Of a stretch of DNA of 64,000 nt, positions 11,311 through 63,923 are shown piece by piece. Every line of letters starts with the position of its first letter. Positions within the stretch are counted from its first letter, which is position 1. The notes under the pieces were generated by a model. It ran no database searches and was not told the DNA's origin. It saw nothing but the letters and a program-made list of their open reading frames with translations. The position numbers were made by a program, and so were the translations under genes. Source of the DNA: Escherichia phage AV126; the sequence record OR352956.1; one strand, 5' to 3'.

Positions 11311-11667
11311 ATGAAAAAATTAATCTTAGCCACATTGCTGGCTACCGTAAGCTTCACCACTTACGCTCAAAAATTTGTAGCAGTTAAAACGGATATTGGT
11401 AAAGATGTTGTGATCACAGGCAACAAGTTTTACTATACACCTGGGAATGGTGTTCTAGAAGAGTGCAAAGATGTTGAGGCATATACAGGAAAAGAAGATA
11501 ACACGGAACGTCCTTTTTATTCGATTATAGCTACTTGCAAAAATGAAATAGTAGCTATTAAACAATACAAAGATGCCCCTGGAGGAGAATACTTATTAGT
11601 CAAGAATATTAAGAGTGAAAAAACTGCAAAGTTTACAGTAATTATTTTAAAAGGAGAAACGTTCTAA
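11311..11667 (+). CDS. hypothetical secreted protein (118 aa)
   Basis: ATG at 11311 after GGAGGGAAG; signal-peptide-like MKKLILATLLATVSFTTYA. Confidence 0.55.
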   Translation: MKKLILATLLATVSFTTYAQKFVAVKTDIGKDVVITGNKFYYTPGNGVLEECKDVEAYTGKEDNTERPFYSIIATCKNEIVAIKQYKDAPGGEYLLVKNIKSEKTAKFTVIILKGETF

Positions 11668-12806
11668 TGAAATACACTATTTTTGGAGATGTAGCGGTTG
11701 TAAATAAGGAATATGGCGTTGAAGCTAATAAACTTCCTGCTGGAGTTTGGGTTGTCAACTGCGATCCGCACGGTAACTACTCTTTAGTGCGTGGCGAAAG
11801 TTTCTCTCTTCCGAACACTCTTTATGGGGAAACTAAAGACCGCGCCGCACATGTTATTAAAACATTTGCTCGTCGTAGTAAAGAAGGTAAAAATACTGGG
11901 GTGTTACTGACAGGGACAAAAGGCAGTGGTAAGACGATGTTAGCTAAACTGATTAGCATGTCTCTAATGTCCACAGAAGGTTTAGGTATTCCAACCATTT
12001 TGGTTACACAGCCTTACACAGATGCTGGCTTCTTAGAATTTATGAGTAAAATTACAGATCGTGCTGTTGTTTTATTTGACGAATTTGATAAAGTGTACGC
12101 TAAGAAAGAAGATCAGGAAGCACTGTTGACCTTGTTGGATGGAACAGGAAGTGGGAATAAACTTTACATCCTCACTAAAAATAGTGGTTATATCTCGGAA
12201 TATTTTGTAAACCGTCCTAGTCGTATCTACTACAGTTTCAATTACGATAAACTGTCTAGTGAAACTATGTTAGATTACTTGGATAAGAACTTGGTAAATA
12301 AAAAGCACGTAGATAACTTCCAACGTTTATGGGATGTTAGCACAGAGTTGTCTTTCGATGTTATTCAAGGCATTGTAGAAGAATTGAATTTCTATCCAAA
12401 AATGACTTTTAAAGAATGTCTTGAAATGATGGGTATTTCTTTAGGGAACGATGCTAAATGGAATGTGGCTTCTATCGTAGCTAATGGCAAAACCTTGAAG
12501 GTGAATTGGATCAATAACTGGCACGACTTCACCCCTACTAAGTTTTTGTCGGGTGCTTGTTCCCTGAACATCTATCTACAAAGTTTGAAAGATGATGAAG
12601 TGGAAGCAATGGAAACCAACAGTTATGTTATCCTGGATGAAGATGGTGATCCACATATTGATCTATGTGCAACGGCTGATGGTCTAACTTGTGATCTGAT
12701 TGAAGGTGGTAAGATTCTGGTTATGAGCACTACACCAGGAAACACTTTGCGAGTGGTGCTGGAGCCTGTAACACAACGTTCCACTACACTTGGTAGCGTG
12801 TTCTAA
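11667..12806 (+). CDS. P-loop NTPase (AAA-like ATPase, 379 aa)
   Basis: Walker A GTKGSGKTMLAK and Walker B-like VVLFDEFDK. Confidence 0.6.
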   Translation: MKYTIFGDVAVVNKEYGVEANKLPAGVWVVNCDPHGNYSLVRGESFSLPNTLYGETKDRAAHVIKTFARRSKEGKNTGVLLTGTKGSGKTMLAKLISMSLMSTEGLGIPTILVTQPYTDAGFLEFMSKITDRAVVLFDEFDKVYAKKEDQEALLTLLDGTGSGNKLYILTKNSGYISEYFVNRPSRIYYSFNYDKLSSETMLDYLDKNLVNKKHVDNFQRLWDVSTELSFDVIQGIVEELNFYPKMTFKECLEMMGISLGNDAKWNVASIVANGKTLKVNWINNWHDFTPTKFLSGACSLNIYLQSLKDDEVEAMETNSYVILDEDGDPHIDLCATADGLTCDLIEGGKILVMSTTPGNTLRVVLEPVTQRSTTLGSVF

Positions 12807-12894: not shown

Positions 12895-14355
12895 GTGCCA
12901 AAAATAGTCACTTGGGAACAATATAAAACAGATATAAAACAAGCTTATCAAGGTAAGTCTTGGACTGTTGTAGATTATATTGAGCCGTGGAACGGCAATA
13001 AAACTAAACTTAGATGCATCTGTGCTCTGCATGGAGAATGGAAAACAACAAGCATAAATACCGCTAAACTAGGGAGGGGTTGTCCAGAATGCGGTAGGGA
13101 GATTATAAGTAAAGCAGTATCTATAAACAAATCAAAAACCTGGGAGCAATATAAAGAAGAAGTGCAAACCGCTTACAATCAGGCAGGTAAGTTTTGGACT
13201 GTTACAGGATGGCACGGAGAATGGAAAGGATGGAATACTAAACTGGTTTGTTGTTGTGCTTTACATGGGGAGTGGAGGTCTACTTCTATATCTTCTGCGA
13301 AAAACGGGAGTGGATGCAGGAAGTGTATGGGAGAAGCAAACAGAGAAAGAACATCGATTGCATGGGAGAAACATAAAGAAGAAGTAGAAGAAGCTTATAA
13401 AGAAAAACCCTGGATTGTTAGAGGCTATGTGGAACCGTGGAACGGTTCCCGCACTAAGTTGATTTGTGAGTGTAAGGTTCATGGTCAATGGTGCACTACC
13501 ACTGTAAACAGTGCTAAACAAGGGACTGGATGCTACAGTTGTCAAAGAGAAATGACGAAACAAAGGAATACAATGGAGGATAAACAACATGTTGAAGATT
13601 TTATAAAAGCTTGTCCTGATAATGTAGAGCGTAAATATTATCGTAGCGATAGAGTAGATAGATTAGGTCGTCAGGTTTACTGGATTGTAGAATGTCCTAT
13701 ATGTGCAGAGGATGATTATTGTAAAGAAGGCTTATGCGATAATAAATTTGAGATGAAGATGAGTCATTTGAAAAGGGGTGGCCTTCCTTGCCGTTGTTCT
13801 AAATATTATCATTACACTCCTGAACAATGGGCCTACCGTATGACCAAAGCTTGCCAGGAACGAGGGGATCAATTTATAGGATTCATTGATAAGGTAAGCA
13901 ATAACAGCAAGTTTAAATATCTATGTAGGGAGCATGGAGAGCAAACGATCACACCTACCGATTATCTCAATGGGAAAGGTTGTCCAGGCTGTAAGAACAG
14001 AAATATGCAAGAATTTTACATCAATATTATTCTTGATGAGTACGGAGAAGACACGGGAGCTTACAAGTTGGGGATTGCAAAGGACAGTGATATCAGGATC
14101 AAAGGGCAGAATGCAAACAACAATTACTTTATGCGCCGTATAGCATTGTTCGATCTGCCGTCCTACCAAGCTTGCAGGGCGTTAGAGAGTAAGCTAAAGT
14201 CTAAGACTGATCAGATTCTACCGTCTATTGGCTGTGTAGAACGCTTGCACATGAAAGATGGTCATAGTGAAACCTTCCTGCGCGAGGATTTGGCTATCGT
14301 CTTAAGTGCTATCAACCAAGCAGGTGGAATAATGAGAGAGGAGGAAACATGTTAG
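12895..14355 (+). CDS. protein with tandem Cys/His zinc-ribbon-like repeats (486 aa)
   Basis: GTG start after AAAGGGGGAGG; three or more repeats of a ~70-aa module W..YK..AY....W.V..Y.EPWNG..TKL.C.C..HGEW.TTS.N.AK.G.GC..C. Confidence 0.55.
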   Translation: MPKIVTWEQYKTDIKQAYQGKSWTVVDYIEPWNGNKTKLRCICALHGEWKTTSINTAKLGRGCPECGREIISKAVSINKSKTWEQYKEEVQTAYNQAGKFWTVTGWHGEWKGWNTKLVCCCALHGEWRSTSISSAKNGSGCRKCMGEANRERTSIAWEKHKEEVEEAYKEKPWIVRGYVEPWNGSRTKLICECKVHGQWCTTTVNSAKQGTGCYSCQREMTKQRNTMEDKQHVEDFIKACPDNVERKYYRSDRVDRLGRQVYWIVECPICAEDDYCKEGLCDNKFEMKMSHLKRGGLPCRCSKYYHYTPEQWAYRMTKACQERGDQFIGFIDKVSNNSKFKYLCREHGEQTITPTDYLNGKGCPGCKNRNMQEFYINIILDEYGEDTGAYKLGIAKDSDIRIKGQNANNNYFMRRIALFDLPSYQACRALESKLKSKTDQILPSIGCVERLHMKDGHSETFLREDLAIVLSAINQAGGIMREEETC

Positions 14356-44670: not shown

Positions 44671-44698
44671 AAGGCACCCACTTGGGTGCCTTTGTTTT
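44671..44698. terminator. bidirectional rho-independent terminator at convergence point
   Basis: AAGGCACCCACTTGGGTGCCTT flanked by A-run upstream and T-run downstream; between last plus gene and last minus gene. Confidence 0.75.
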
Positions 44699-44969
44699 AT
44701 TCTTCGTTAGATTGCGTTTCAGATGCGTTAAATTCGGTTTCAGTACAACTTGCTAGGTAACTTATATTTTGCATCACTACAACTACAGGTGTTTGAAGTT
44801 TATCTTCTAGCCCCGCAGCCACTTGAGCCAAGGCATTATCAATATTTGATTTCCTAACACCTGTTCCATGTCCTGTTGCCAAGTAAAGATTACCTTCCCC
44901 TTTTTGTGTAGCATTAGCAAAGTAGTAAACGTAATGTGCAAGGTAGTAATCACGGATTTCTTCAGTCAT
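44697..44969 (-). CDS. hypothetical protein (90 aa)
   Basis: Last gene of leftward block; AGGAGAA SD. Confidence 0.5.
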   Translation of the reverse strand: MTEEIRDYYLAHYVYYFANATQKGEGNLYLATGHGTGVRKSNIDNALAQVAAGLEDKLQTPVVVVMQNISYLASCTETEFNASETQSNEE

Positions 44970-44986
44970 TTTATTCTCCTGATAAG

Positions 44987-45006
44987 AAAGGGGCCGAAGC
45001 CCCTTG
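44987..45006 (-). terminator. intercistronic GC hairpin with UUCG loop (minus strand)
   Basis: Minus sense AAGGGGCUUCGGCCCCUUU after Sir2 stop, then SD and ATG of next gene. Confidence 0.45.
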
Positions 45007-45012
45007 AGTGGT

Positions 45013-45813
45013 TTATTTGTTTAAATGGTCTTCAACCATTTTGATAAAGCCTTCATCACTGAAGACTGTTCCTGCTTTCTCTCGGTAGACAAGCACTCCA
45101 CGTTCTTCGTAGAGAGTTTGTTCTACAAAATTCAAACCTGGGTTAACTACTACCATCTTAACCCCAATATTCAGGGCAGGGAAGAGTTCCCAGTTGAAGT
45201 TGATTACTTGGTTAGAGCAGCCTACAACGATAACCATATCTTGTGATGTTAGTTGATCCAGTTTGTGATACATGTCTGTGTAGAGTGGTGCATTCTCACC
45301 AAAAAACACCACATTAGGCTTCACATATTTGTAATCGTCTACATCAATAGCTGCGTAACCCACATCTTTGATAATTTTGTTATCAACAACAACTTCTGGC
45401 AAGAAGCCATGAACGTGCAATATTTCTTCTCTATCGATTCCAGCGCGTTCTAATAGATCGTCAACGTTAGTAGTAATGTTAATAATCCTTTCTGCACCGT
45501 ATTTTTCGAACCATTCTCCAATCTGAAGATGTGCTGGATTCGGGTCAACTTTCTCTAATTCCACGCGACGTTTATTGTAGAAGTCGTGAGTTTTACGGTA
45601 GAGGTTATATCCTTCCACATCTAAGCCACCCATAGCATCAGGAATACCCTGTTCTTGCTGATAACCGTCACGGAAGTTGAAAATGTCACAGACTTCTGTT
45701 AAATCGTATTCATCCCATAATGCCTTTCCAGAATCTGTTTCTGTGCGAAATGTTTGGATTCCGCTGTCAGCACTTAGTCCCGCACCACTAATAAAATATA
45801 CACGTCTTGGCAT
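45013..45813 (-). CDS. Sir2-family NAD-dependent protein (sirtuin-like, 266 aa)
   Basis: GAGLSADSGIQTFR (Rossmann NAD motif), TTNVDDLLERAG...HVHG (catalytic His), PNVVFFGE, IVVGCSNQV; no CxxC zinc-ribbon pairs. Confidence 0.75.
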   Translation of the reverse strand: MPRRVYFISGAGLSADSGIQTFRTETDSGKALWDEYDLTEVCDIFNFRDGYQQEQGIPDAMGGLDVEGYNLYRKTHDFYNKRRVELEKVDPNPAHLQIGEWFEKYGAERIINITTNVDDLLERAGIDREEILHVHGFLPEVVVDNKIIKDVGYAAIDVDDYKYVKPNVVFFGENAPLYTDMYHKLDQLTSQDMVIVVGCSNQVINFNWELFPALNIGVKMVVVNPGLNFVEQTLYEERGVLVYREKAGTVFSDEGFIKMVEDHLNK

Positions 45814-46286
45814 TATTCGTCCTCCTCAAATGGATCATAAGAATCATATTCGTAAGTATCATCTTCTGAAAATTCTACTTCGAAATAAATATCAAACTCT
45901 GCAAACAGACGTAGGATGTTAGACATGCTATAATAATTATCGTAGGCAGATTCAGCTTCATAGTAAACATAAAGCAAATGGTTAGCCTTATCATCTTCCA
46001 AATATTTCCCGTCTGCATACGCATAGTCTGCATATGCTTTACCTGCATCTTCTACAAGAGAACGATCAAGCAGAGTAGGAAATGGTTTCTCTTTTTCTTT
46101 TAGTTTGCTCACCAACCAATGTGCAATATCATTCCATTCTGCATCCATACCACTAAAGCAACTTGCTTCTTCTCCAAAAGAAGCTTCTCCTAAATCGCCA
46201 CTAATACGAACAACATTAGATGAATTATAGCCACACGTTTCACAATCAGAGTAACTATTATGCACATTGACATTTACTTGAAACAT
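45813..46286 (-). CDS. hypothetical acidic protein (157 aa)
   Basis: ORF; start overlaps Sir2 stop. Confidence 0.5.
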   Translation of the reverse strand: MFQVNVNVHNSYSDCETCGYNSSNVVRISGDLGEASFGEEASCFSGMDAEWNDIAHWLVSKLKEKEKPFPTLLDRSLVEDAGKAYADYAYADGKYLEDDKANHLLYVYYEAESAYDNYYSMSNILRLFAEFDIYFEVEFSEDDTYEYDSYDPFEEDE

Positions 46287-46344
46287 ATTCCCTCCTATAA
46301 AAGAAAAGCCCCCTGAAACAGGAGGCTTTGTTCAGATGTTGGCA

Positions 46345-46998
46345 CTATACCAGACTTTGTAGGTATTTGTCAAGGGCTTCTTGATCACCTTGGCAAACAT
46401 AGCAACGGAAGTCTTGAGCCGAAGGTTGTTTATTTTCATCCCAATCCCAATAAACGTTACCTTTATAACGTGAACCAGGGAACTCAAAAGAGGCTGTATG
46501 TGTAATGTACCCTGGGCCACCAGTGAAATCACAGAATGAAAATTGAGGGTATGCCGCCTTTACTGCCTCAATAAACCAAGCTTTACGATCTAAGGCTTCA
46601 TTGATGCTATATGCATGTCTCTCCATTTCTTCCCAAGTTTTCCAGACGCTTCTCTCATCAGGAGAGAAGACAAGCCATTCTGGAAGGTAGAGAGTGTCAT
46701 AGTAATCATCATATTCGATCTCGGATGCGCACGAAGCTGACTCCTCCAACTTTGAGTAGTCAAAAGCGGAATATACCCACCAACCATCTTCCAGCAAGGC
46801 TTTGATAGGGACAAAACCTTTATCTGCATATTGATCAAATTGTTTGACACGGTGGCTTGTGCAGTCTTCAAACTCACATTCTAAACGATATGCACCTTTT
46901 CGACGAGCCTCAAGACCGTGTGTACTGAAAATAACAACACTTCCTTCACCATCATTACGATCTACTTGATAAGCAACTACTGGTTTTGAATTTGACAT
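46345..46998 (-). CDS. hypothetical protein (217 aa)
   Basis: ORF in co-oriented block. Confidence 0.5.
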   Translation of the reverse strand: MSNSKPVVAYQVDRNDGEGSVVIFSTHGLEARRKGAYRLECEFEDCTSHRVKQFDQYADKGFVPIKALLEDGWWVYSAFDYSKLEESASCASEIEYDDYYDTLYLPEWLVFSPDERSVWKTWEEMERHAYSINEALDRKAWFIEAVKAAYPQFSFCDFTGGPGYITHTASFEFPGSRYKGNVYWDWDENKQPSAQDFRCYVCQGDQEALDKYLQSLV

Positions 46999-47681
46999 TA
47001 TTTCTCCTTATCTAGAAGATTGTTAGACAAAAACACTGCACGAGCAAAACCACGTGCGGTTAGTGATCTAAGTTGTTTTGTTTTTGCACTGGCTCCGCCT
47101 AAGCTTTTCCAACCCCAGAAGCAGCCTATATGATCTACTGGTTTCTTCACTGGTTGAACAAAACCATTGCCGTGCCAAATACAAGTTTTCTTTGTATACC
47201 CATCACGGGTAGGCATTTTAGGATGAAAGCTTCCTTCCTCTTCAAACAAATACCCACCATACTCATAAGGATCAAAGTAAAAATCGGGTTTACGCCATAA
47301 GGTTGAAAGTTTACCTACTGGGTTTTCAATCATCCAAGGAACATTATATTTGTTACCCAAAGCTTCCACTACACGAATATTAGCTAAAGCTTCGTCTAAT
47401 TCCTCTGTGCTGCGTTCGTGTTTGCTACCACTACCTGCTAACATAGTGCAAGGTGGAAATCCAAAAATAATATCGGGTTTAGGTATTCCATGATCTTCAG
47501 GGTTGAATGTAGAATCTATCCAAGCATTCACATAGGTTATGTTTGGGTGTTCCATCCTAACCTCGTATTTACCGTGGTCCCCTTCATCAGCGTTTACACA
47601 AAAACACTTGTGACCTGCTTCGGCATAACGTAACACCATGATCCCAGATCCGTCAAACATAGACAAAACTGTTTTACTCAT
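46998..47681 (-). CDS. C5-methyltransferase-fold protein (about 227 aa)
   Basis: ATG 47681 after GGAGGGG; FDGSG (motif I-like), GFPPCT (motif IV-like Pro-Cys), ENPVGK (ENV-like); no obvious target-recognition domain. Confidence 0.45.
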   Translation of the reverse strand: MSKTVLSMFDGSGIMVLRYAEAGHKCFCVNADEGDHGKYEVRMEHPNITYVNAWIDSTFNPEDHGIPKPDIIFGFPPCTMLAGSGSKHERSTEELDEALANIRVVEALGNKYNVPWMIENPVGKLSTLWRKPDFYFDPYEYGGYLFEEEGSFHPKMPTRDGYTKKTCIWHGNGFVQPVKKPVDHIGCFWGWKSLGGASAKTKQLRSLTARGFARAVFLSNNLLDKEK

Positions 47682-48087
47682 TACCCCTCCATTCAAGACA
47701 AGCCATAACTTTACGCCAATCACTTTCTGTAAGAAAAATCTCGTTTGCTTTCTTCCACAAATCTAGATCGTGAAGGGTTGGAATACGATATGTTAGTTCA
47801 CAGAATCTATGTTCTTCTTCTGTAATATAACCAAAATGCAAAGCCACATCGTGAAACCAACACCAACCATGCATCTCTCGAACAACATGATCATGTTGAG
47901 ACATTGTTTTATGACGTAAACCTAACCAACAAGGAACAGATACTTTAGTAGTCTTTAATCTGTGATCAACAGTATTAGAGTATTCAATAATAGCTATCAA
48001 TTTCAATCGTGCTTTTTCTAAATCCTCATGCGGCACTTTGAAATAACTTTCTGAAAGATATCCACACATATTAATAACCTCCTTCAA
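47674..48087 (-). CDS. hypothetical protein (137 aa)
   Basis: ORF overlapping neighbours. Confidence 0.5.
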   Translation of the reverse strand: MKEVINMCGYLSESYFKVPHEDLEKARLKLIAIIEYSNTVDHRLKTTKVSVPCWLGLRHKTMSQHDHVVREMHGWCWFHDVALHFGYITEEEHRFCELTYRIPTLHDLDLWKKANEIFLTESDWRKVMACLEWRGNE

Positions 48088-49012
48088 AAGGCTTAACTAC
48101 ATGTTGATTAGCTTTAAAACGTTCAACATAGTCGTTTTCACCCATGTTTTCATATAGCTTAGTAACAACATAAAAGTTCTCCCAAGCATATTCCCTAAAC
48201 CAACCACTAGTGATAGATGTGCAAACTTTAGATAAAGCCATCATAAAACTTTGCTTAGGGGTTGGACCTCCGATCTCTTCACCGAAAGGAATTTGTGAAC
48301 GTTCCAAAGCCAAAACACACGCTTCTTCATAAACACCTAACAGGCGCACATGTTTTGGTTGAGCAAAAAACTTTTCTTTGCTGGTCATAACTTCACTTCC
48401 ATCTTTCATATAAGATTTATATGCTGGAGCATCCATTACTGCGATTGCTTCATGAATAGAGTCATGATCATAAACATACGGAACCTCATCACCTTTAAAG
48501 AAGTCTTTACTTCTCACGTTTAAGTTTGGATGAGAGTAAGTATATGTTTCTTTCTCACGCAACTCATAAATACTCTTAAGATTTTCTGGGATCTTTGCGC
48601 CTAGTGATCGCATGAAATGAATATCTTTCATAGTTTTAAAGAAGTAAGGACTATCCTTTTTAAAACGATGACTCATTTTAAGAAGGTAGAGCACATCTAA
48701 AGGAGCAACAACGTGTCCAGCGTAAGTTCGACGAATATCATCACAGTCTTCACAATAACTAATCAAAGCTTCTGTGCTATTTCCTTGAGAAGCAATATCG
48801 TATTCCAAATGTGCACCCGCTATCATTTTGACATGGCCCTTGTTCCCTTTACGCTCTACAAGTTCAACAAACTCATCTTGAGAGAACATTTTTGATAATT
48901 CTTCCCACTCTTGTTCTGTACAGAGATAATCTAAATCTACACAAGGGCGATACAAGTCTTTTCCCATGTCCATAGCATGAATTTGTAATGCACGGCTACC
49001 AATTAACACCAT
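48071..49012 (-). CDS. hypothetical protein (313 aa)
   Basis: ORF with upstream promoter (TTGACA-17-TAAACT) at 49043-49071; weak nucleotidyltransferase-like GS...DLD pattern. Confidence 0.5.
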   Translation of the reverse strand: MVLIGSRALQIHAMDMGKDLYRPCVDLDYLCTEQEWEELSKMFSQDEFVELVERKGNKGHVKMIAGAHLEYDIASQGNSTEALISYCEDCDDIRRTYAGHVVAPLDVLYLLKMSHRFKKDSPYFFKTMKDIHFMRSLGAKIPENLKSIYELREKETYTYSHPNLNVRSKDFFKGDEVPYVYDHDSIHEAIAVMDAPAYKSYMKDGSEVMTSKEKFFAQPKHVRLLGVYEEACVLALERSQIPFGEEIGGPTPKQSFMMALSKVCTSITSGWFREYAWENFYVVTKLYENMGENDYVERFKANQHVVKPFEGGY

Positions 49013-55046: not shown

Positions 55047-55068
55047 GAAATGCCCCCGAAGGGGCAGT
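55047..55068 (-). terminator. intercistronic GC hairpin with UUCG loop (minus strand)
   Basis: Minus sense CUGCCCCUUCGGGGGCAUUUCUU between HslV-like gene and next ORF. Confidence 0.4.
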
Positions 55069-56299: not shown

Positions 56300-57058
56300 T
56301 TAAATAAACACTTCAGTAATCAGTTTAGACAAACGTCCACGTTTATTATCGTCCGTTGTCAGTTCAACATATCCAATAAAATCTACAATTGGCTCACGAA
56401 CACCTTCTTCATTTTCTGGATATAAAAGTTCCAAAATTTGATGCAGACCATTGCTACGTTTTTTAATTGCATATGTCTGGCGAACATCACCTAATACAAT
56501 AACATGCGTATTAATACCTGCACGTTCAATAAGAAGTTTAAGTGTTTCTGTTGACATAAGTTGTGCTTCGTCAATAATGACAATTGTATTATCCAGGGTA
56601 GCTCCCAACAAATAGTTAGGAATATTCAATTCGATCTTACCTGATCCAATATCGTTTTCCAATTTGTTGGCTGTCATGAATTGCTGGAAAATACGTTTTG
56701 TAGATTCATAGTGTGCTGCTAGTTTATCTGTTTTATCCCCAGACAAGAAACCAATCTGGTCATCTCCGACTTCAGTAGGGTTTTTGATAAAAAGTAGTTT
56801 ACGGAAGTCTCCTGAACGAAGCATCTGCAAAGCTTTCCATAAAGCAACAGAGGTTTTACCAGTCCCTGCCGGAGCATTTACAACAGTCAGATCATTCCAA
56901 ATCATGCTTTGAACAATCTTATTTTGGTCCCCTTCAGGCATAAATTCATCTAAACGGTAATCGTCATTACCTACCGCTTTTGCTGCATAACGGCTTTCAA
57001 TCTTTGCTGAATTAGCCAGTTTCTGCCGTTGTGTTTTAGCTGCGGTTTTATTTCCCAT
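56300..57058 (-). CDS. phoH: PhoH-like ATPase (about 252 aa)
   Basis: ATG 57058 after AAGGAG; VNAPAGTGKTSVAL (Walker A), VIIDEAQLMS (Walker B). Confidence 0.8.
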   Translation of the reverse strand: MGNKTAAKTQRQKLANSAKIESRYAAKAVGNDDYRLDEFMPEGDQNKIVQSMIWNDLTVVNAPAGTGKTSVALWKALQMLRSGDFRKLLFIKNPTEVGDDQIGFLSGDKTDKLAAHYESTKRIFQQFMTANKLENDIGSGKIELNIPNYLLGATLDNTIVIIDEAQLMSTETLKLLIERAGINTHVIVLGDVRQTYAIKKRSNGLHQILELLYPENEEGVREPIVDFIGYVELTTDDNKRGRLSKLITEVFI

Positions 57059-57065
57059 AGTAGCA

Positions 57066-57090
57066 CTCCTTTTAGAAGGGGCCGAAGCCC
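57066..57090 (-). terminator. intercistronic GC hairpin with UUCG loop (minus strand)
   Basis: Minus sense AAAGGGGCUUCGGCCCCUUCU between lysozyme stop and phoH SD. Confidence 0.4.
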
Positions 57091-57095
57091 CTTTA

Positions 57096-57596
57096 TTAGT
57101 TGTAAGCATCTAAAGTTCCAGAAGTCAGAACTTTAATTACTCGTTCAGCACGGTTTGGCGTCTGGCTATACCATCGGCTTTTACGCATGTTTTTACCTGC
57201 TTGAGTATAATATGCATTGCTGATTAAAGTCAAGCTATTTTGAAACCCTTCAGCACCTTTTAACCCCAACTGGAAAACCATGTTGATTATTCCCAATTTA
57301 CGAGTATCACTCACCTTATCATAGATTGGTGATAAGATAGCACTGTTTTTTATGTCTCTCTTCACTTTTGCAACATCGTCAGCAAAGATTTGACGGGCTT
57401 CTTTTTCTGTGATAACTCCATTGGTCTTACGACCAAGGAGATTATCTAAGATTTGAATAGCCTTTGCTTTATCTTTTATTTTAGTCAGAAGGTGTCCTAT
57501 GCCGACTGTCCAATAACCAAGATGGTCTTGATAAACAGTAAGCTTCAGTCCTTCATCGACTCGTAGCATATCAAACTCATCTACTACTTTAGCCAT
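57096..57596 (-). CDS. e: T4-type lysozyme (endolysin, 166 aa)
   Basis: Colinear with T4 lysozyme: ...RVDEGLKLTVYQDHLGYWTVGIGHLLTK...GVITEKEA...INMVFQLG...SRWYSQTPNRAERVIKVL..GTLDAYN. Confidence 0.9.
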   Translation of the reverse strand: MAKVVDEFDMLRVDEGLKLTVYQDHLGYWTVGIGHLLTKIKDKAKAIQILDNLLGRKTNGVITEKEARQIFADDVAKVKRDIKNSAILSPIYDKVSDTRKLGIINMVFQLGLKGAEGFQNSLTLISNAYYTQAGKNMRKSRWYSQTPNRAERVIKVLTSGTLDAYN

Positions 57597-57758: not shown

Positions 57759-58019
57759 TTACTCCGCAATTTGAGCCATGAGATCACGCAGTTCGGTAAA
57801 ACCGCCTACGTATGTTACCTCCCCGTTCACTTCAGACAGAATTTGTGGAAATGTGCGTGGAGGAACTCCGGTAAGATCAACAACTGTTTTAGTCATTGAT
57901 TCTAAATCGTAGTCTTGGTCAAGACTTAAATATTCAAACTGTTTATTGCGCATGGTTAATAGTTGTTTTGACATTTCACAAAATTGACAGTTAGGTTTAC
58001 CAAAAATTACAAATTCCAT
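57759..58019 (-). CDS. glutaredoxin-like thioredoxin (NrdC/NrdH-like, 86 aa)
   Basis: N-terminal active site GKPNCQFC (CxxC) in glutaredoxin-fold-sized protein; GGAG SD. Confidence 0.7.
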   Translation of the reverse strand: MEFVIFGKPNCQFCEMSKQLLTMRNKQFEYLSLDQDYDLESMTKTVVDLTGVPPRTFPQILSEVNGEVTYVGGFTELRDLMAQIAE

Positions 58020-58861
58020 TACCTCTCCTTATTAAGTAATACTGCTAAAGACTGTTCAATACCTTTATTTAAATCTGATTTTGTAAGATAGTGACTGGTT
58101 ACTAGTTGTGACTTCACCGGACGTGCTGCTGGAGCATTATAGGTTGAAGCTGATACCGCCGATATCTTAACAGGTTCTGGCATCTGTGTCAAGATCTTTT
58201 CCGCAAACTCCGCCCAAGAAATAAGATGGCTTCCTGCAAAATGGTAAGTCTTAACAGATCTTGACCAACCTGTTTTTAATACTTCAAAAATAGCTTCTGC
58301 TAAATCTGGGGCATATGTTGGACAAGAGAACTGATCAGCAACAATAATAAAATCACGTTGTCCATCATTATAGCGAGACAACATGGTTTTTAGAAAGTTA
58401 TTTCCAAATTCGCTATATACCGAGGCTGTTCGAATAATATATGCATTTGGGTTAACTCCTCGCACCATTTTTTCACCAAGTTCTTTCGTATACCCATAAT
58501 TGTTTATTGGGTTAGGTGTAGTATCTTCAAAAATAGGATGAGAATAATTAAAAATATAGTCTGTAGAAATATGCACAAAATCAATTTTAAGTTTGCTGCA
58601 CACTGCCGCAATATTTGCAGGTCCATACGCATTAACAGCCAAAGCAGTAGCAAATTCATGTTCTGCTTTATCTACCGCCGTATAAGCGGCGCAATTAATA
58701 ACACCATCTACATAATCTTCAACAATAGCGTTTCGCACAGCTTCAAAATTTGTAATATCTACACGTTCTTTAGGATAAATTAAAGATACATTTGCAGGGG
58801 CAACTTTACGTAAAGCTTGTCCCAGTTGTCCATTACCACCCAATACCAAATATGTTAGCAT
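58019..58861 (-). CDS. rmlD: dTDP-4-dehydrorhamnose reductase (RmlD, 280 aa)
   Basis: N-terminal Rossmann LVLGGNGQLGQAL; size and operon position after rmlC. Confidence 0.75.
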   Translation of the reverse strand: MLTYLVLGGNGQLGQALRKVAPANVSLIYPKERVDITNFEAVRNAIVEDYVDGVINCAAYTAVDKAEHEFATALAVNAYGPANIAAVCSKLKIDFVHISTDYIFNYSHPIFEDTTPNPINNYGYTKELGEKMVRGVNPNAYIIRTASVYSEFGNNFLKTMLSRYNDGQRDFIIVADQFSCPTYAPDLAEAIFEVLKTGWSRSVKTYHFAGSHLISWAEFAEKILTQMPEPVKISAVSASTYNAPAARPVKSQLVTSHYLTKSDLNKGIEQSLAVLLNKER

Positions 58862-59421
58862 ACACCCTCGCTACGTAACTGTTGAAAAGATTTAGCCATT
58901 GCATCTTTTGTTGATAGGATAGGTTTAAAACCTTCATCAAAAATCATATCGAAGCCCCAATCGATCCCTATATCAGGATCATCCCAACGTAAACTTTGTT
59001 CACTAGAAGAGTCGTATGGAGTTGTGCATTTGTATTCAAAGATAGCATCCATACTCAAAACTATAAAACCATGTGCCAAACCAGGTGGAAGCCAAAACTG
59101 CGTATGGTGTCGTGCACGAAGAACAACACCGTCCCAAGCACCGTAAGTAGGACTATCTTTACGTAAGTCTACAGCGAAATCCAATACTTCACCACTTACA
59201 CAACGAACAAGCTTACCTTGCGGATTATTTGTTTGAAAGTGCATTCCTCGCAAAACACCGAAGTTTGATTTAGACATGTTATCTTGAACGAAAGTTTGTC
59301 TACCAATAATATCTTCGTATTTTTGTTCATTATATGTTTCTAAAAAGAAACCACGGTCATCTTTATAAACGTCTGGTTTGATAATTACCGCACCTTCAAT
59401 TTTTGTCTTTTCTACTTTCAT
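58855..59421 (-). CDS. rmlC: dTDP-4-dehydrorhamnose 3,5-epimerase (RmlC, about 188 aa)
   Basis: ATG 59421 after GGAGAGAAA; cupin-type RmlC sequence (GVLRGMHFQ...); ORF-track 5' extension overlaps rmlA. Confidence 0.75.
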
Positions 59422-60296
59422 TTTCTCTCCGCTAATTTGAGTAGGTATTGCCCGTACTCTGTTTTCTTCAGTGAGTTTCCATGATATACCAAAGTCTCTA
59501 AAGAAATCCACCCTTTTTTGAAAGCAATTTCTTCCAGGCACGCAATCTTCAACCCTTGACGGTTCTCAATAGTCTGCACGAATTGACCAGCTTCCATCAG
59601 ACTGGCGTGTGTTCCTGTGTCAAGCCAAGTAAATCCTCGTCCGAGAACTTCCACTTGTAACTTCCTGTCTTCGAGGTAGCTGCGATTGATATCTGTGATC
59701 TCCAGTTCTCCCCGCGCGGAAGGGGTTACTTCTAATGCACGTTCAACAACAGAGTTATCATAGAAATACAAACCTGTGACAGCATAATCTGATTTAGGAT
59801 TTTCAGGTTTCTCTTCAATAGAAATAGCTTGACGATTACTCCCAAATTCAACCACACCGAATCGTTCAGGATCTTTCACCAAATACCCGAAGATACAAGC
59901 TCCGCCACAAACATCTACCATCTCACTGGCGTTAATCAGTAGTTTACCAAAGCTTTGTCCGAAGAATAGGTTGTCACCTAAAATAAGAGCAACAGAGTCT
60001 TCTCCGATAAAATCTTTACCGATGATGAAAGCGTCCGCAAGACCTCGTGGCTCGGATTGGATTGCGTAAGTGAGTTTTATCCCAAACATAGACCCATCTC
60101 CGAGAAGATACTCAAAGTCTTCCTGATCGCCTGGTGTGGTGATGATTAAGATATCCTTAATGTCAGCCAACATCAATACCGATAAAGGGTAGTAGATCAT
60201 GGGTTTGTCATACACAGGGAGCAATTGCTTGCTCACACTGCGTGTTACCGGATGAAGGCGGGTTCCACTTCCTCCCGCCAAAATAATACCTTTCAT
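59418..60296 (-). CDS. rmlA: glucose-1-phosphate thymidylyltransferase (RmlA, about 292 aa)
   Basis: ATG 60296 after GGAG; [18 protein letters not shown]...VEFGSN...VTGLYFYD typical of RmlA. Confidence 0.85.
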
Positions 60297-60304
60297 AGCC
60301 CTCC

Positions 60305-61297
60305 TTAAATCTTCCCACTCCACCATTGAGGGTTGTTTAAGTACCATTCAATCGTTGAGTAGAGATCTTGTTCAAATGTAGAGTTTGCACTCCAACCCAG
60401 TTCAGACTCTATTTTAGAAGGATTGATTTCATAACGCAAGTCATGTCCTTTACGATCTTCAACAAAAGTTATCAAGTTGGAAGAAGGGTAGGTTCCTGCT
60501 TCTGGATGTACAGCATCCATGTAGTCACAAACCATATAGATGATCTCCATATTGGTTTTGGGATTACGTGTTCCAACATTATACGTTTGACCTGGTTCTC
60601 CACCTGTTGCCACTTGAAGAATAGCTCGCGCATGATCCTCAACAAAAAGCCAGTCTCGCACCTGATCGCCTTTACCATACACCGGAATCTCTTTATTCGT
60701 CAAGATACTTGTGATGATTTTTGGGATCAGCTTTTCTGGATGTTGATAAGGTCCAAAGTTATTGGAGCAGTTGGTTATCACAACAGGTAAACCGTAGGTA
60801 CGGTACCAAGCTTTCACAAGATGGTCAGATGCTGCCTTAGACGCACTGTACGGGCTTGAAGGGGCATAAGCTGTCTCTTCGGTAAAGGGAACGCCAGAGT
60901 CTGCCATATCGCCGTACACTTCGTCTGTGGAGACGTGTACGAACATCTTCAGTTTATTTTTTGGGAGGAGCCTTGCAGCTTCCAATAAATTGTATGTGCC
61001 AATAATATTGGAGTCGATGAAAACTCGTGGATTCTTGATAGAATTATCCACATGACTCTCTGCCGCTAAGTGAATGATGAAATCGGGATTGCACTCTACT
61101 ACTAAACTTTTGACCTGGGTTTCGTTTGCCAAATCTGTTATGCTTAGTTTAACGTGAGTGATATCGCCTACATTCTCAATATCTGCTGCATAGCCCATCT
61201 TATCAACGACAAAAACTTCGTTATTGGGATCTTGACAAAGAGAGCGCACCACGGCACTCCCAATAAAACCAAGACCACCTGTTACCAGATAGCGCAT
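60305..61297 (-). CDS. rmlB: dTDP-glucose 4,6-dehydratase (RmlB, 330 aa)
   Basis: [16 protein letters not shown], ...HLAAESHVD..., YSASKAA (YxxxK) SDR motifs. Confidence 0.85.
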
Positions 61298-61306
61298 CAG
61301 TTCTCC

Positions 61307-61633
61307 TTACCAGACATGTTGAGAAATAATAGTTTCCGTTTTAATGTTATATTTTTCAAGTAGCTTTGCATAGGCTTCTTTTGCATTCTCATTCAATTGC
61401 TCAAGATCTACAGCTATGCTTCCTTCTCCGCCTTCTAAATCAAGGCCATATATGCAATAAGACTCATCCGCATCGTAGAAAGGAGAGATGCGGCTTAAGT
61501 CAAGACCTTCTTGTAAGAACCAGTTAAAATCTCCGTCAAATTCTTCTTCAATTCTAGGATCTTCTCCTACAGCCTCTTCCCACTTATTAAAAGGTGCACC
61601 CTGTAACATACGCCATTCGATATCAATACCCAT
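61307..61633 (-). CDS. hypothetical acidic protein (108 aa)
   Basis: ORF in co-oriented block. Confidence 0.5.
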   Translation of the reverse strand: MGIDIEWRMLQGAPFNKWEEAVGEDPRIEEEFDGDFNWFLQEGLDLSRISPFYDADESYCIYGLDLEGGEGSIAVDLEQLNENAKEAYAKLLEKYNIKTETIISQHVW

Positions 61634-61928
61634 TTTTCATCTCCTCCTCTTCTTGAGCAGCTTTAATAATTGCTTCATAAATATCGTAAGCAATGCCTCC
61701 ACAACATCTAGCTTCGAAAGCTATTGCTTCTGCAATGTGATCTGTTAATTCTCGTGGAATGCGAACATACTCTTTTTCACTCTCCATCTTCTACCTCCAA
61801 CCCTTCTTTTTCAAAGACTACTACTCGTCCCTCACCATGACAATTCAGGCAAGGAAATGTTACCATAATTTCCACTTCCATCTGTCCCGTCCCACCGCAC
61901 ACAGGACAAAAAATAAGTTTTTCAGCCA

Positions 61929-62138
61929 CTATTCCTCCTTAATTATTTCAAATTTGGCAACACCATTTACAATAATATGACCACAAGACATAACTCCTAG
62001 CCAAGGATCGCCGTTTTTCTTCAGGCGTTTACCGAATACATCACAAAAACCATTCTTCATTTCAGAGGCTTCATAAGAAGCCCCTTTATCAAAAACGTCT
62101 TTGAATGTGTCGATTATACCAACACATTTCAAAATCAT
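61929..62138 (-). CDS. hypothetical protein (69 aa)
   Basis: ORF; start overlaps nrdB stop. Confidence 0.45.
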   Translation of the reverse strand: MILKCVGIIDTFKDVFDKGASYEASEMKNGFCDVFGKRLKKNGDPWLGVMSCGHIIVNGVAKFEIIKEE

Positions 62139-63223
62139 TCGAAGTCAAGCTCCTCATCATCAGAGAGATCTTTGTTAGCTGAATTCAATTTGTAATTAGT
62201 TAACTGAATCTCTTGGGCTGCTGACTGAATCAAATCAGGATTCAACCATTTTTCCATCCAAGCTAAAGGACTGTGTTTAGGTGCTTTAAACTTGGCTTTC
62301 ATTTTCAATCGACGATAAATAGGAGCAGCATTGAAATAAACCCACTGTTTAGACAATTCGGCGTTAAGACCTACAATAAAACGACCTTCACTAAACAGGT
62401 AGTCACACCACTGTTCCTCTTGTTCAACAACAGTGTCGAGGATCAAAGTCAACTCTTCAATATTGTCTTCGTAAATTTTACGCCAAATTGGGTCATGCAT
62501 CAATGCATCAATTACAGCATAATCCATCTTAACATGCAAGATTTCATCTAGCATAATTTTCTGGATCAGTTTACAAGCTCCAACAAACAGTTGTTGTTCT
62601 GCCATAGCAAAAGTAGCAGAGAAGGAAGATATAAACTGGATACCTTCTAACCCAATCAGGGCTACCATCCCTTTAAGAATCAGCAATCGAAGTTCATCGT
62701 TAGCTTCAATCAATCCTAGAGCATACTTATGACCAGCTTCTTCCAACTGACCCATGATATCAGCAATGATACCCATACGATTGAAAATTTTATCATTAAC
62801 CATAATCTGATTGATGACTTCAATTGGATCTGGAGTACATTGACGGATTATTTCAGAATACGTTAACGCATGGAGAACTTCCATTTCACTCTGCTTCATC
62901 ATCATAGCACAGGCTTCATTGTTACTCAAGAATGGAGAGAACAAAGTGATGATTGATTTTGCAAGAGAATCATTTTCCCATTGGAACGATAAGTTTTTAA
63001 TCATAACATCATAGTTGTTTTTAGAACAAGCTACGAAATCTTTACGTGTCTGATCTAGATTAACTTCGTTTTCATCCCAATCTTGTGCTTTTTGAAGTTT
63101 GTAGAGTTTGTGCATTTCTGGATAAGTTACGTTAACAGAATCAAAGATCCCTAATTGCTCCCCCAAAAATACTGGATATTTTCCTGTTTTGTAAACTTCA
63201 TTGTGTAAATTAATTGCTGCCAT
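62135..63223 (-). CDS. nrdB: ribonucleotide reductase small subunit (NrdB, 362 aa)
   Basis: Ferritin-like diiron protein; C-terminal ...WMEKWLNPDLIQSAAQEIQLTNY resembles T4 NrdB C-terminus; adjacent to nrdA. Confidence 0.85.
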   Translation of the reverse strand: MAAINLHNEVYKTGKYPVFLGEQLGIFDSVNVTYPEMHKLYKLQKAQDWDENEVNLDQTRKDFVACSKNNYDVMIKNLSFQWENDSLAKSIITLFSPFLSNNEACAMMMKQSEMEVLHALTYSEIIRQCTPDPIEVINQIMVNDKIFNRMGIIADIMGQLEEAGHKYALGLIEANDELRLLILKGMVALIGLEGIQFISSFSATFAMAEQQLFVGACKLIQKIMLDEILHVKMDYAVIDALMHDPIWRKIYEDNIEELTLILDTVVEQEEQWCDYLFSEGRFIVGLNAELSKQWVYFNAAPIYRRLKMKAKFKAPKHSPLAWMEKWLNPDLIQSAAQEIQLTNYKLNSANKDLSDDEELDFE

Positions 63224-63240: not shown

Positions 63241-63262
63241 AAAAGGGGGCCGAAGCCCCTTT
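63241..63262 (-). terminator. intercistronic GC hairpin with UUCG loop (minus strand)
   Basis: Minus sense AAAGGGGCUUCGGCCCCCUUUUAUU between homing-endonuclease-like ORF and nrdB SD. Confidence 0.45.
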
Positions 63263-63266
63263 ATAT

Positions 63267-63923
63267 TTAGCCTCGAAATACTGTTTTTGTTTCCGCCAGG
63301 TGCCAATAGAAATCAGCTTTGTTTACAAGAGTGTTGTACACCTCTGGATAAAAATGTTCTTCCTCTTTGTAACGATCTGCTGTTTCCCTGATTGACTTAG
63401 CTTTATCCTTTAGCCAAGCGAAGTGTGCCTCTTCCTCTGTAGAGAAGTAGCCTAAATGCTTTCCTTTACTCCCAGAAGCTTTGGCATAAATCTTACCATC
63501 TTTCCTAACATGTGCTCCTAGTAAGTATTTTCTTTCATACCTCTTAGCATAACTTAAGAGTGTATTTATATAAGGAGGAACAAACCTACAATATTCAGGA
63601 CAATAAACAGTATTTCCTTCAAGAACAAGATCTTTATCTAAAACAAAGCCTTCCACATTGTGTTCTTGATACTAGTTATCAAAGTTTGAAAAGGTGAACC
63701 AAGCATCACACACAGTAACATCTTTATAACCTGGTCTAATGTTTTCCATACGATATGCACGATTAAACATGCCTTTCCAAGCTGCATAGGAAGGGTCTAT
63801 GAATGTATTAACCCTTTTCCCATTGATAACACCACCTTCCCACAATCTACGTTCAACATCCACAATCAAGGGGATTTCTCCCCTCTCTGTGAGAACGGTA
63901 ACTTTACGTTTACCCTTCTTCAT
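63267..63923 (-). mobile_element. homing-endonuclease-like ORF (AP2-domain family) interrupted by an in-frame TAG at 63672-63674; possible pseudogene
   Basis: ORF-track ORFs 63672..63923 and 63267..63656 are in the same frame 5 codons apart; upstream part W.GMFNRAY...YKDVTVCDAWFTFSNF and downstream GKIYAKASGSKGKHLGYFSTEEEAHFAW (AP2-like); sits between nrdA and nrdB as T4 mobE does. Confidence 0.5.

Follow-up and report, generated by a model that had tools for sequence, protein, structure and literature searches.

The stretch of DNA analysed here, 64,000 nucleotides (nt) of Escherichia phage AV126 (sequence record OR352956.1; 'the window' below, with all positions given in its numbering), carries an operon for the synthesis of deoxythymidine diphosphate (dTDP)-L-rhamnose. 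Four consecutive open reading frames (ORFs) on the minus strand, at 58019-61297, are in transcription order rmlB, rmlA, rmlC and rmlD:

60305-61297, minus strand: rmlB, dTDP-glucose 4,6-dehydratase, 330 amino acids (aa); TIGR01181, 429 bits against a cut-off of 365
59418-60296, minus strand: rmlA, glucose-1-phosphate thymidylyltransferase, 292 aa; TIGR01207, 469 bits against a cut-off of 361
58855-59421, minus strand: rmlC, dTDP-4-dehydrorhamnose 3,5-epimerase, 188 aa; TIGR01221, 222 bits against a cut-off of 156
58019-58861, minus strand: rmlD, dTDP-4-dehydrorhamnose reductase, 280 aa; TIGR01214, 238 bits against a cut-off of 224

We judged identity by the equivalog cut-offs of NCBIfam, and all four products exceed theirs, RmlD by the narrowest margin (238 against 224). 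The NCBIfam E-values, from 1e-66 to 1e-141, are far beyond chance, and Pfam is concordant. For rmlA and rmlC the listed ORFs begin too far upstream; because the hidden Markov model alignments and the annotation of relatives fit them, we place the starts at MKGIIL (60296) and MKVEKT (59421), the TIGR01207 alignment of RmlA beginning at residue 19 of the listed ORF. Comparison with solved structures extends to the individual residues. RmlB aligns with Salmonella RmlB (1g1a; E 7e-111) with GxxGxxG, the T-D-E triad and YxxxK all kept, and RmlA aligns with 4ho0 (E 3e-126), where GGSGTRL preserves the G-G-x-G-T-R-L motif and the rest of the alignment is likewise conserved. RmlC matches Salmonella RmlC (1dzr; E 6e-55) and retains the His, Lys, Tyr and Asp that we take to be the catalytic residues of the Salmonella enzyme. 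The structures closest to RmlD are 3sc6 and 1vl0 (E 1e-44), with Salmonella RmlD (1kbz) at only 1e-29; GxxGxxG, Thr and YxxxK are kept in the alignment to 3sc6. An earlier reading of the window, made from the sequence only, had proposed a complete dTDP-L-rhamnose pathway in the order B-A-C-D, and the equivalog scores and conserved catalytic residues bear this out. We found no frameshifts and no internal stops, and the catalytic residues are intact; inactive or frameshifted rml genes are ruled out by the equivalog scores and the structure alignments, and the RmlABCD pathway is apparently functional.

Between rmlB and rmlA lies an 8-nt spacer containing AAGGAGG. The start of rmlC falls on the stop of rmlA (an ATGA overlap), rmlC and rmlD overlap by 7 nt, and rmlD overlaps the glutaredoxin-like gene that follows it through TAATG. 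Every junction of the operon has a Shine-Dalgarno sequence, and an AAGGAG ribosome-binding site precedes rmlB. The suggestion that the genes are translationally coupled thus holds for the three of four junctions that overlap, and not for rmlB/rmlA with its spacer.

By its best nucleotide matches the AV126 genome is a Phapecoctavirus (Stephanstirmvirinae, phAPEC8-like), and not one of the Straboviridae/Tevenvirinae as its initial description as a T4-type phage would have it. Over the rml region it is 99.2% identical to Dompiswa phage TSP7_1, and a nucleotide search found phAPEC8, ESCO13, ESCO5 and dozens more Escherichia phages at 98-99% identity. The operon does lie, as claimed, inside a nucleotide-metabolism block, flanked by nrdA/nrdB and by a glutaredoxin-lysozyme-phoH cluster, with four small ORFs intervening between nrdB and rmlB. 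Among the records that match these E. coli phages (Phapecoctavirus/Justusliebigvirus) are four 'Campylobacter phage' entries, MG065650.1, MG065645.1, MG065689.1 and MG065656.1 (B15, A145, A110a and C3). B15 is 98.8% identical over the rml region, and these records may be mislabelled or contaminant.

Neither the operon nor the leading hypothesis about it is new. The genes are annotated in more than 100 GenBank phage records, most of which already name the four products in this way, and Olsen et al. 2020 (Viruses 12:986) described the operon and proposed that, as in T4, hydroxymethylated nucleotides are glycosylated, here with rhamnose. Maffei et al. 2021 (PLoS Biol 19:e3001424) reported phi92-like phages with a 'putative dTDP glycosylation machinery' that are 'exceptionally susceptible' to restriction-modification systems, and the lack of rmlA and rmlB in ESCO37 was remarked on in a 2023 study. 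A broad literature search returned plant and bacterial rhamnosyltransferase papers only, and a 2026 paper on glycosylated 5-hydroxycytosine makes no mention of rhamnose or of these phages. phAPEC8, phi92 and other Stephanstirmvirinae have the same genes at the same locus; AV126 is one more member with no essential difference, although some relatives in the phAPEC8/phi92 group, unlike AV126, lack rmlB and rmlA. The interest now lies in the use that a virulent coliphage makes of activated rhamnose.

Origin and composition of the operon

Judged by its synteny and divergence, the rml operon is an old module of the phage lineage. It occupies the same locus in the same order in the sister-genus Justusliebigvirus phage PaulScherrer, with amino-acid identities to AV126 of 64% (RmlB), 71% (RmlA), 62% (RmlC) and 54% (RmlD). 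Subfamily-wide, RmlC is at least 95% identical in 64 phapecoctavirus-level records and about 62% identical in its Justusliebigvirus counterparts, among them phi92 and PaulScherrer. When 5.8 billion proteins were searched with RmlD, relatives of at least 51% identity lay mostly on contigs of about 150 kb; the next tier stands at 45% or less, and the named homologs in it are bacterial (Bacteroidota, Halobacteriovorax and one Erwinia at 41%). To the question of whether the rml genes are host-derived or of phage lineage, synteny with the sister genus and the RmlD clade answer in favour of the phage lineage.

We also considered a recent capture from the host, which is ruled out by nucleotide identity to E. 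coli of at most 64%, a different gene order and the phage-specific RmlD clade. The best match among 5,426 complete E. coli genomes reaches 64% nucleotide identity over 45% of the operon query. In E. coli the rml gene order is B-D-A-C, and the features of this best match list rfbD before rfbA, consistent with that order. Bacterial RmlA/B/C/D (rfbBDAC of E. coli and Salmonella; the rffG/rffH paralogs) belong to the same four families, and their genes are likewise contiguous and co-oriented. The phage operon differs from the bacterial rfb genes in its order (B-A-C-D against B-D-A-C), in having no adjacent wzx, wzy or glycosyltransferase genes, in belonging to a virulent phage, and in an RmlD that is nearest to non-enterobacterial enzymes (at 45% identity or less) and not to enterobacterial RmlD.

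Several observations divide the operon into an rmlBA and an rmlCD part. Third codon positions have a higher GC fraction in rmlB and rmlA (0.40-0.42) than in rmlC and rmlD (0.22-0.26). In ESCO37 rmlB and rmlA have been cleanly deleted (at L005 3991-4001, corresponding to window 59422-61297), so that rmlC directly follows a small upstream ORF and both rmlC and rmlD are retained. Counts of matching records suggest that rmlC and rmlD are all that is left of the operon in about 24 of 64 phapecoctavirus records: the whole 4.3-kb query is covered in only 40 of the 64, and RmlA is present at 90% identity or more in 46, some six of which are apparently phiWec179-like. The operon of phiWec179 (L093 1625-4900) is a mosaic in which RmlB and RmlA are 94% and 97% identical to those of the window, against 64% for RmlC and 66% for RmlD; because identity falls exactly at the rmlA|rmlC junction, the comparison places a recombination breakpoint there. 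All E. coli make dTDP-4-keto-6-deoxyglucose for enterobacterial common antigen by means of RffH and RffG, and rmlC and rmlD are found only in those strains with rhamnose-containing O-antigens. As about 24 of the 64 records apparently retain rmlC and rmlD alone, rmlB and rmlA are dispensable, host RffG/RffH presumably covering their steps. On this evidence the phage would require the end product, dTDP-L-rhamnose, in every host; it would be unable to do without rmlC and rmlD, and the role of rmlB and rmlA would be to increase flux.

A glycosyltransferase cassette in relatives

That the window holds no recognizable glycosyltransferase was already noticed in the sequence-only reading, and a Pfam scan of its 20 larger unannotated ORFs agrees, having found among them no glycosyltransferase or base-modifying enzyme. 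The same scan gave a UvrD-like helicase, an AAA ATPase, CapR repeats, DUF7275/7277 and a metallophosphatase; the putative methyltransferases of the window are too divergent for Pfam. Outside the window, the related phage vB_Ec-G1 has four consecutive glycosyltransferase genes, EcG1_130, EcG1_129, EcG1_128 and EcG1_127, which we call GT4, GT3, GT2 and GT1:

vB_Ec-G1 record 87984-91128 (L004 26185-29329), outside the window: GT4-GT3-GT2-GT1 cassette

In vB_Ec-G1 the cassette lies between the endolysin gene and the genes for primase, methyltransferase and DNA polymerase, and coordinate mapping from this phage puts it about 14 kb beyond the window start. All four proteins are without transmembrane segments, and GT3 and GT4 have DxD-type motifs. 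AlphaFold models of GT3 and GT1 are confident (predicted local distance difference test scores of 89.5 and 92.8), and the predicted folds are GT-A/GT2-type for GT3 and GT-B/GT4-family for GT1. The best fold matches of GT1 include PglA, WlaC, PimA, WbnH and WaaG, and those of GT3 include TarP, TarS and AvpGT. The T4 enzymes AGT and BGT are in the fold-match list at ranks 17 and 31, with many other GT4-family enzymes ranking higher.

Cassette and rml genes are found in similar numbers of phage records, about 126-129, including TSP7_1 and ESCO37, which has rmlC and rmlD only; the tallies show no band corresponding to Vequintavirus records. In more distant phages of about 135-150 kb an RmlB-like dehydratase is inserted within the cassette, and its presence there speaks for a functional tie of the cassette to nucleotide-sugar supply. 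GT1-GT4 are conserved across the Stephanstirmvirinae and are probable users of dTDP-rhamnose.

Parts of the cassette also occur in other phages. To judge by its distribution, the core pair of a GT-A enzyme and GT2 (GT-B) has spread widely among phages as a mobile cassette; IMG/VR has at least 562 relatives of GT2, which typically lie next to lysis or terminase genes. In a lambdoid temperate phage a GT3-GT2 pair is found between the lysis genes and the region of the Q antiterminator, a Serratia HK97-like prophage has GT4-GT3-GT2 between its lysis cassette and terminase, and in small metagenomic phages the GT-A enzyme, GT2 and a hexapeptide acyltransferase lie about 2.8 kb upstream of the large terminase gene (TerL). 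The stretches read of these temperate and small phages contain no nucleotide-modification genes. The relatives are located as follows:

L007 5589-7670; L011 9394-10969; L013-L091: cassette relatives

GT3 is also similar to the N-terminal GT-A domain of Cheoctovirus mycobacteriophage glycosyltransferases (26-28% identity over about 130 aa, E about 1e-8). A passage of PMC11256854 that cites Freeman et al. 2023 describes this group as glycosylating its capsid. We treat the homology as a lead, not as proof of a shared acceptor.

Possible uses of the activated rhamnose

We lean towards the view that the operon secures dTDP-L-rhamnose for the phage's own glycosyltransferases, and that bulk DNA is a less likely cytoplasmic acceptor than a virion protein or envelope precursor. 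The intact rmlB-rmlA-rmlC-rmlD operon would be co-transcribed and expressed with the nucleotide-metabolism genes. RmlA would join glucose-1-phosphate and deoxythymidine triphosphate (dTTP) to give dTDP-glucose, RmlB would turn this into dTDP-4-keto-6-deoxyglucose, RmlC would epimerize C3 and C5, and RmlD would reduce C4 to yield dTDP-L-rhamnose. The infected cell would then be able to make dTDP-L-rhamnose whatever the O-antigen genotype of the host; the RmlA and RmlB steps would duplicate those of host RffH and RffG, and the RmlC and RmlD steps, missing from many E. coli, would be the ones that the phage always keeps. The GT4-GT3-GT2-GT1 cassette, we infer, would use this donor to build a rhamnose-containing glycan on a cytoplasmic acceptor. 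More tentatively, and with less than even confidence, we suggest that Stephanstirmvirinae phages may have a glycosylation system of their own: the rml operon, whose indispensable core would be rmlC and rmlD, would feed the cassette, and a rhamnose-containing oligosaccharide would be placed on virion proteins or on sparse or sequence-specific DNA sites. Should this prove true, it would be the first case of a coliphage component glycosylated from dTDP-rhamnose.

Several points weigh against the view that we favour. We connect the rml genes with the cassette by inference, and in vB_Ec-G1 the two are about 75 kb apart. Both lie within DNA-metabolism/replication modules, and because of this location and of weak matches of the GT3 family to the Pfam family TAGT (TET-associated glycosyltransferase) some room is left for a DNA acceptor. 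The fold matches are generic and indicate no acceptor. Ser/Thr-rich tails are acceptor sites in glycosylated mycobacteriophages, and we found none on the capsid, decoration, sheath and tube proteins. There is also some doubt that L-rhamnose is the end product, because the RmlD score barely passes its cut-off; the product could be a related 6-deoxyhexose such as 6-deoxy-L-talose.

One alternative is that the phage glycosyltransferases attach rhamnose to pyrimidines of the phage DNA that are hydroxylated or hydroxymethylated, as happens with glucose in T4 and arabinose in RB69, and that nucleases are blocked in this way. This was put forward in the sequence-only reading and had been proposed before it (Olsen et al. 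2020), and we give it a slim chance. In its favour, the rml genes lie among nrdAB, glutaredoxin and other nucleotide genes, and the glycosyltransferases lie beside DNA polymerase, methyltransferase and primase. There is precedent in DNA-modification clusters that combine sugar-nucleotide genes with several glycosyltransferases (PMC13326640), and a MazG-like pyrophosphohydrolase, a nucleotidase and a small kinase are encoded nearby in relatives. The weak TAGT matches, found in 16 of 17 GT3-family members (best E 1e-4), can be read in its favour too, but they are below the gathering score and limited to the region round the DxD motif, and many GT4-family enzymes outrank those of T4 in the fold search. 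Further points tell against it. No ThyA-family hydroxymethylase, 5-hydroxycytosine synthase or TET/JBP protein is annotated in vB_Ec-G1 outside the region of the window, and no base-hydroxylating enzyme turned up among the window ORFs that were scanned, a set from which many small ORFs were left out and which a very divergent enzyme could escape. The only thymidylate-synthase-like protein of vB_Ec-G1 is of the ThyX type, EcG1_041 (332 aa; L003 4316-5314, past nrdA and just outside the window), which scores only 33 bits on Pfam Thy1 and has a near-canonical THRxxSxxxxSSR motif with THR replacing the first RHR. Phi92-like phages with the same syntenic operon are, moreover, reported to be restriction-sensitive and are cleared by Druantia, and homologs of the cassette occur in small temperate phages where the stretches read hold no nucleotide-modification genes. 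Bulk DNA rhamnosylation is unlikely, because the sister genus is reportedly highly restriction-sensitive, a ThyA-type hydroxymethylase was not found and cassette relatives sit beside lysis and terminase genes; virion proteins or host surface polysaccharide fit a cassette of four glycosyltransferases better than DNA bases do. As a separate observation, EcG1_041 adjoins genes for an NT5C-like deoxyribonucleotidase, a small 'nucleotide kinase' and the MazG-like pyrophosphohydrolase.

Host-envelope remodelling, which we consider rather unlikely, would place an O-unit-like oligosaccharide on undecaprenyl-pyrophosphate or on the lipopolysaccharide (LPS) core, for export by host flippase and ligase. 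It could mask receptors, with superinfection exclusion or less adsorption of progeny to debris as the gain, or it could divert undecaprenyl phosphate. An O-antigen cluster usually consists of just such genes, rml together with three or four soluble GT2/GT4-type transferases; these phages use the LPS core and surface glycans as receptors, and in temperate phages the cassette relatives occupy moron-like positions. Among the best fold matches are enzymes acting on lipid-linked glycans, although such matches are unspecific and mirror the content of the PDB. Against it, the annotation of vB_Ec-G1 lists no wzx, wzy, ABC exporter or waaL-like membrane protein; the 'membrane protein' of its cassette region is apparently TerC-like, to judge from TerC at the matching position of the related contig L009. 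The phages are also strictly virulent, and infection is short. A purely metabolic role, boosting or maintaining host dTDP-sugar pools (for enterobacterial common antigen or O-antigen, for example) or adjusting the flux of dTTP and glucose-1-phosphate with no phage-specific acceptor, would suit an operon embedded in nucleotide metabolism whose rmlB and rmlA are redundant with host enzymes and often lost. It seems to us very improbable, as the rhamnose-committing genes rmlC and rmlD are always kept, the operon is present in about as many phage records as the dedicated glycosyltransferase cassette, and its long retention by the phage lineage speaks for a specific function.

Known systems offer partial parallels to a phage-encoded supply of rhamnose for phage glycosyltransferases. 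T4, with glucosyl-hydroxymethylcytosine, and RB69 and DLP3, with arabinosyl-5-hydroxycytosine, likewise have a nucleotide-sugar pathway and several glycosyltransferases in DNA-metabolism regions. In RB69 and DLP3 the genes for uridine diphosphate (UDP)-arabinose, several glycosyltransferases and a ThyA-homolog 5-hydroxy-deoxycytidine monophosphate (dCMP) synthase form one system (Lee et al. 2026, NAR gkag646). The phages considered here differ from T4, RB69 and DLP3 in that no ThyA-homolog hydroxylase or hydroxymethylase was found, their relatives are restriction-sensitive, and the donor is a dTDP-sugar, not a UDP-sugar. Cluster F mycobacteriophages such as Che8 have soluble phage glycosyltransferases that are not membrane-linked, as do the Stephanstirmvirinae relatives; in contrast, the GT3 homology is weak and of fold only, and Ser/Thr-rich tails are lacking on capsid and tube. 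We know of no rml genes in cluster F mycobacteriophages. Mimivirus has its own activated-rhamnose pathway and glycosyltransferases, which serve its fibril glycans; that pathway is UDP-linked and belongs to a virus of another host domain, whereas the phage pathway is dTDP-linked.

The identity of the acceptor has practical weight: both Phapecoctavirus and the phi92-like group are candidates for phage therapy. Antibody recognition could be altered by a glycan on the virion, as reported for mycobacteriophages, and superinfection and adsorption by one on the host surface. The four-glycosyltransferase cassette and the natural variants with rmlC and rmlD only make the question tractable with existing isolates.

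Neighbouring genes and other features of the window

The operon is set among the following features:

63246-63259, minus strand: terminator-like hairpin (GGGGCTTCGGCCCC followed by a T run) upstream of nrdB; consensus match only; possible upstream limit of the transcription unit
62135-63223, minus strand: nrdB, class Ia ribonucleotide reductase beta subunit; from the ORF and annotation in relatives
61307-62138, minus strand: four small ORFs between nrdB and rmlB (108, 54, 50 and 69 aa), function unknown; from the ORF list
57759-58019, minus strand: glutaredoxin-like gene with a CQFC motif, annotated glutaredoxin 1 in relatives; shares the transcription unit of rmlD
57096-57596: lysozyme gene, beyond the glutaredoxin-like gene
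56300-57109: phoH, beyond the glutaredoxin-like gene with that for lysozyme
55051-55066, minus strand: terminator-like hairpin after an HslV-like gene; consensus match only; possible downstream limit of the transcription unit

A scan of the region for promoters and terminators gave site counts not above those of shuffled sequence, and only the two hairpins plausibly bound the unit. The four small genes upstream of rmlB are annotated in TSP7_1, ESCO37 and PaulScherrer as well; the 108-aa product has no Pfam match. What is apparently the C-terminal end of nrdA lies at the window edge. Between nrdB and nrdA, at 63267-63923 on the minus strand, is a gene for an HNH/AP2-like homing endonuclease. 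In AV126 it is broken by an in-frame stop (83 aa, stop, 129 aa), and in vB_Ec-G1 it is one gene of 218 aa. Only about 20 of 69 related records have the insertion, and TSP7_1 is without it.

Two further regions of the window deserve mention. On the minus strand at 44697-49012 is a cluster in which a short Sir2-like ORF is accompanied by genes for a Sir2 deacetylase, unknown proteins of 157, 217 and 131 aa, a putative DNA methyltransferase of 227 aa that has no Pfam match, and a 313-aa DUF7277/DUF7275 protein. On the plus strand, about 35 kb at 9200-44650 consist mostly of small ORFs without recognized function and are probably an early region; an AAA/STAND-like ATPase is encoded there at 11667-12806, and the product of 13327-14355 has three CapR homology domains.

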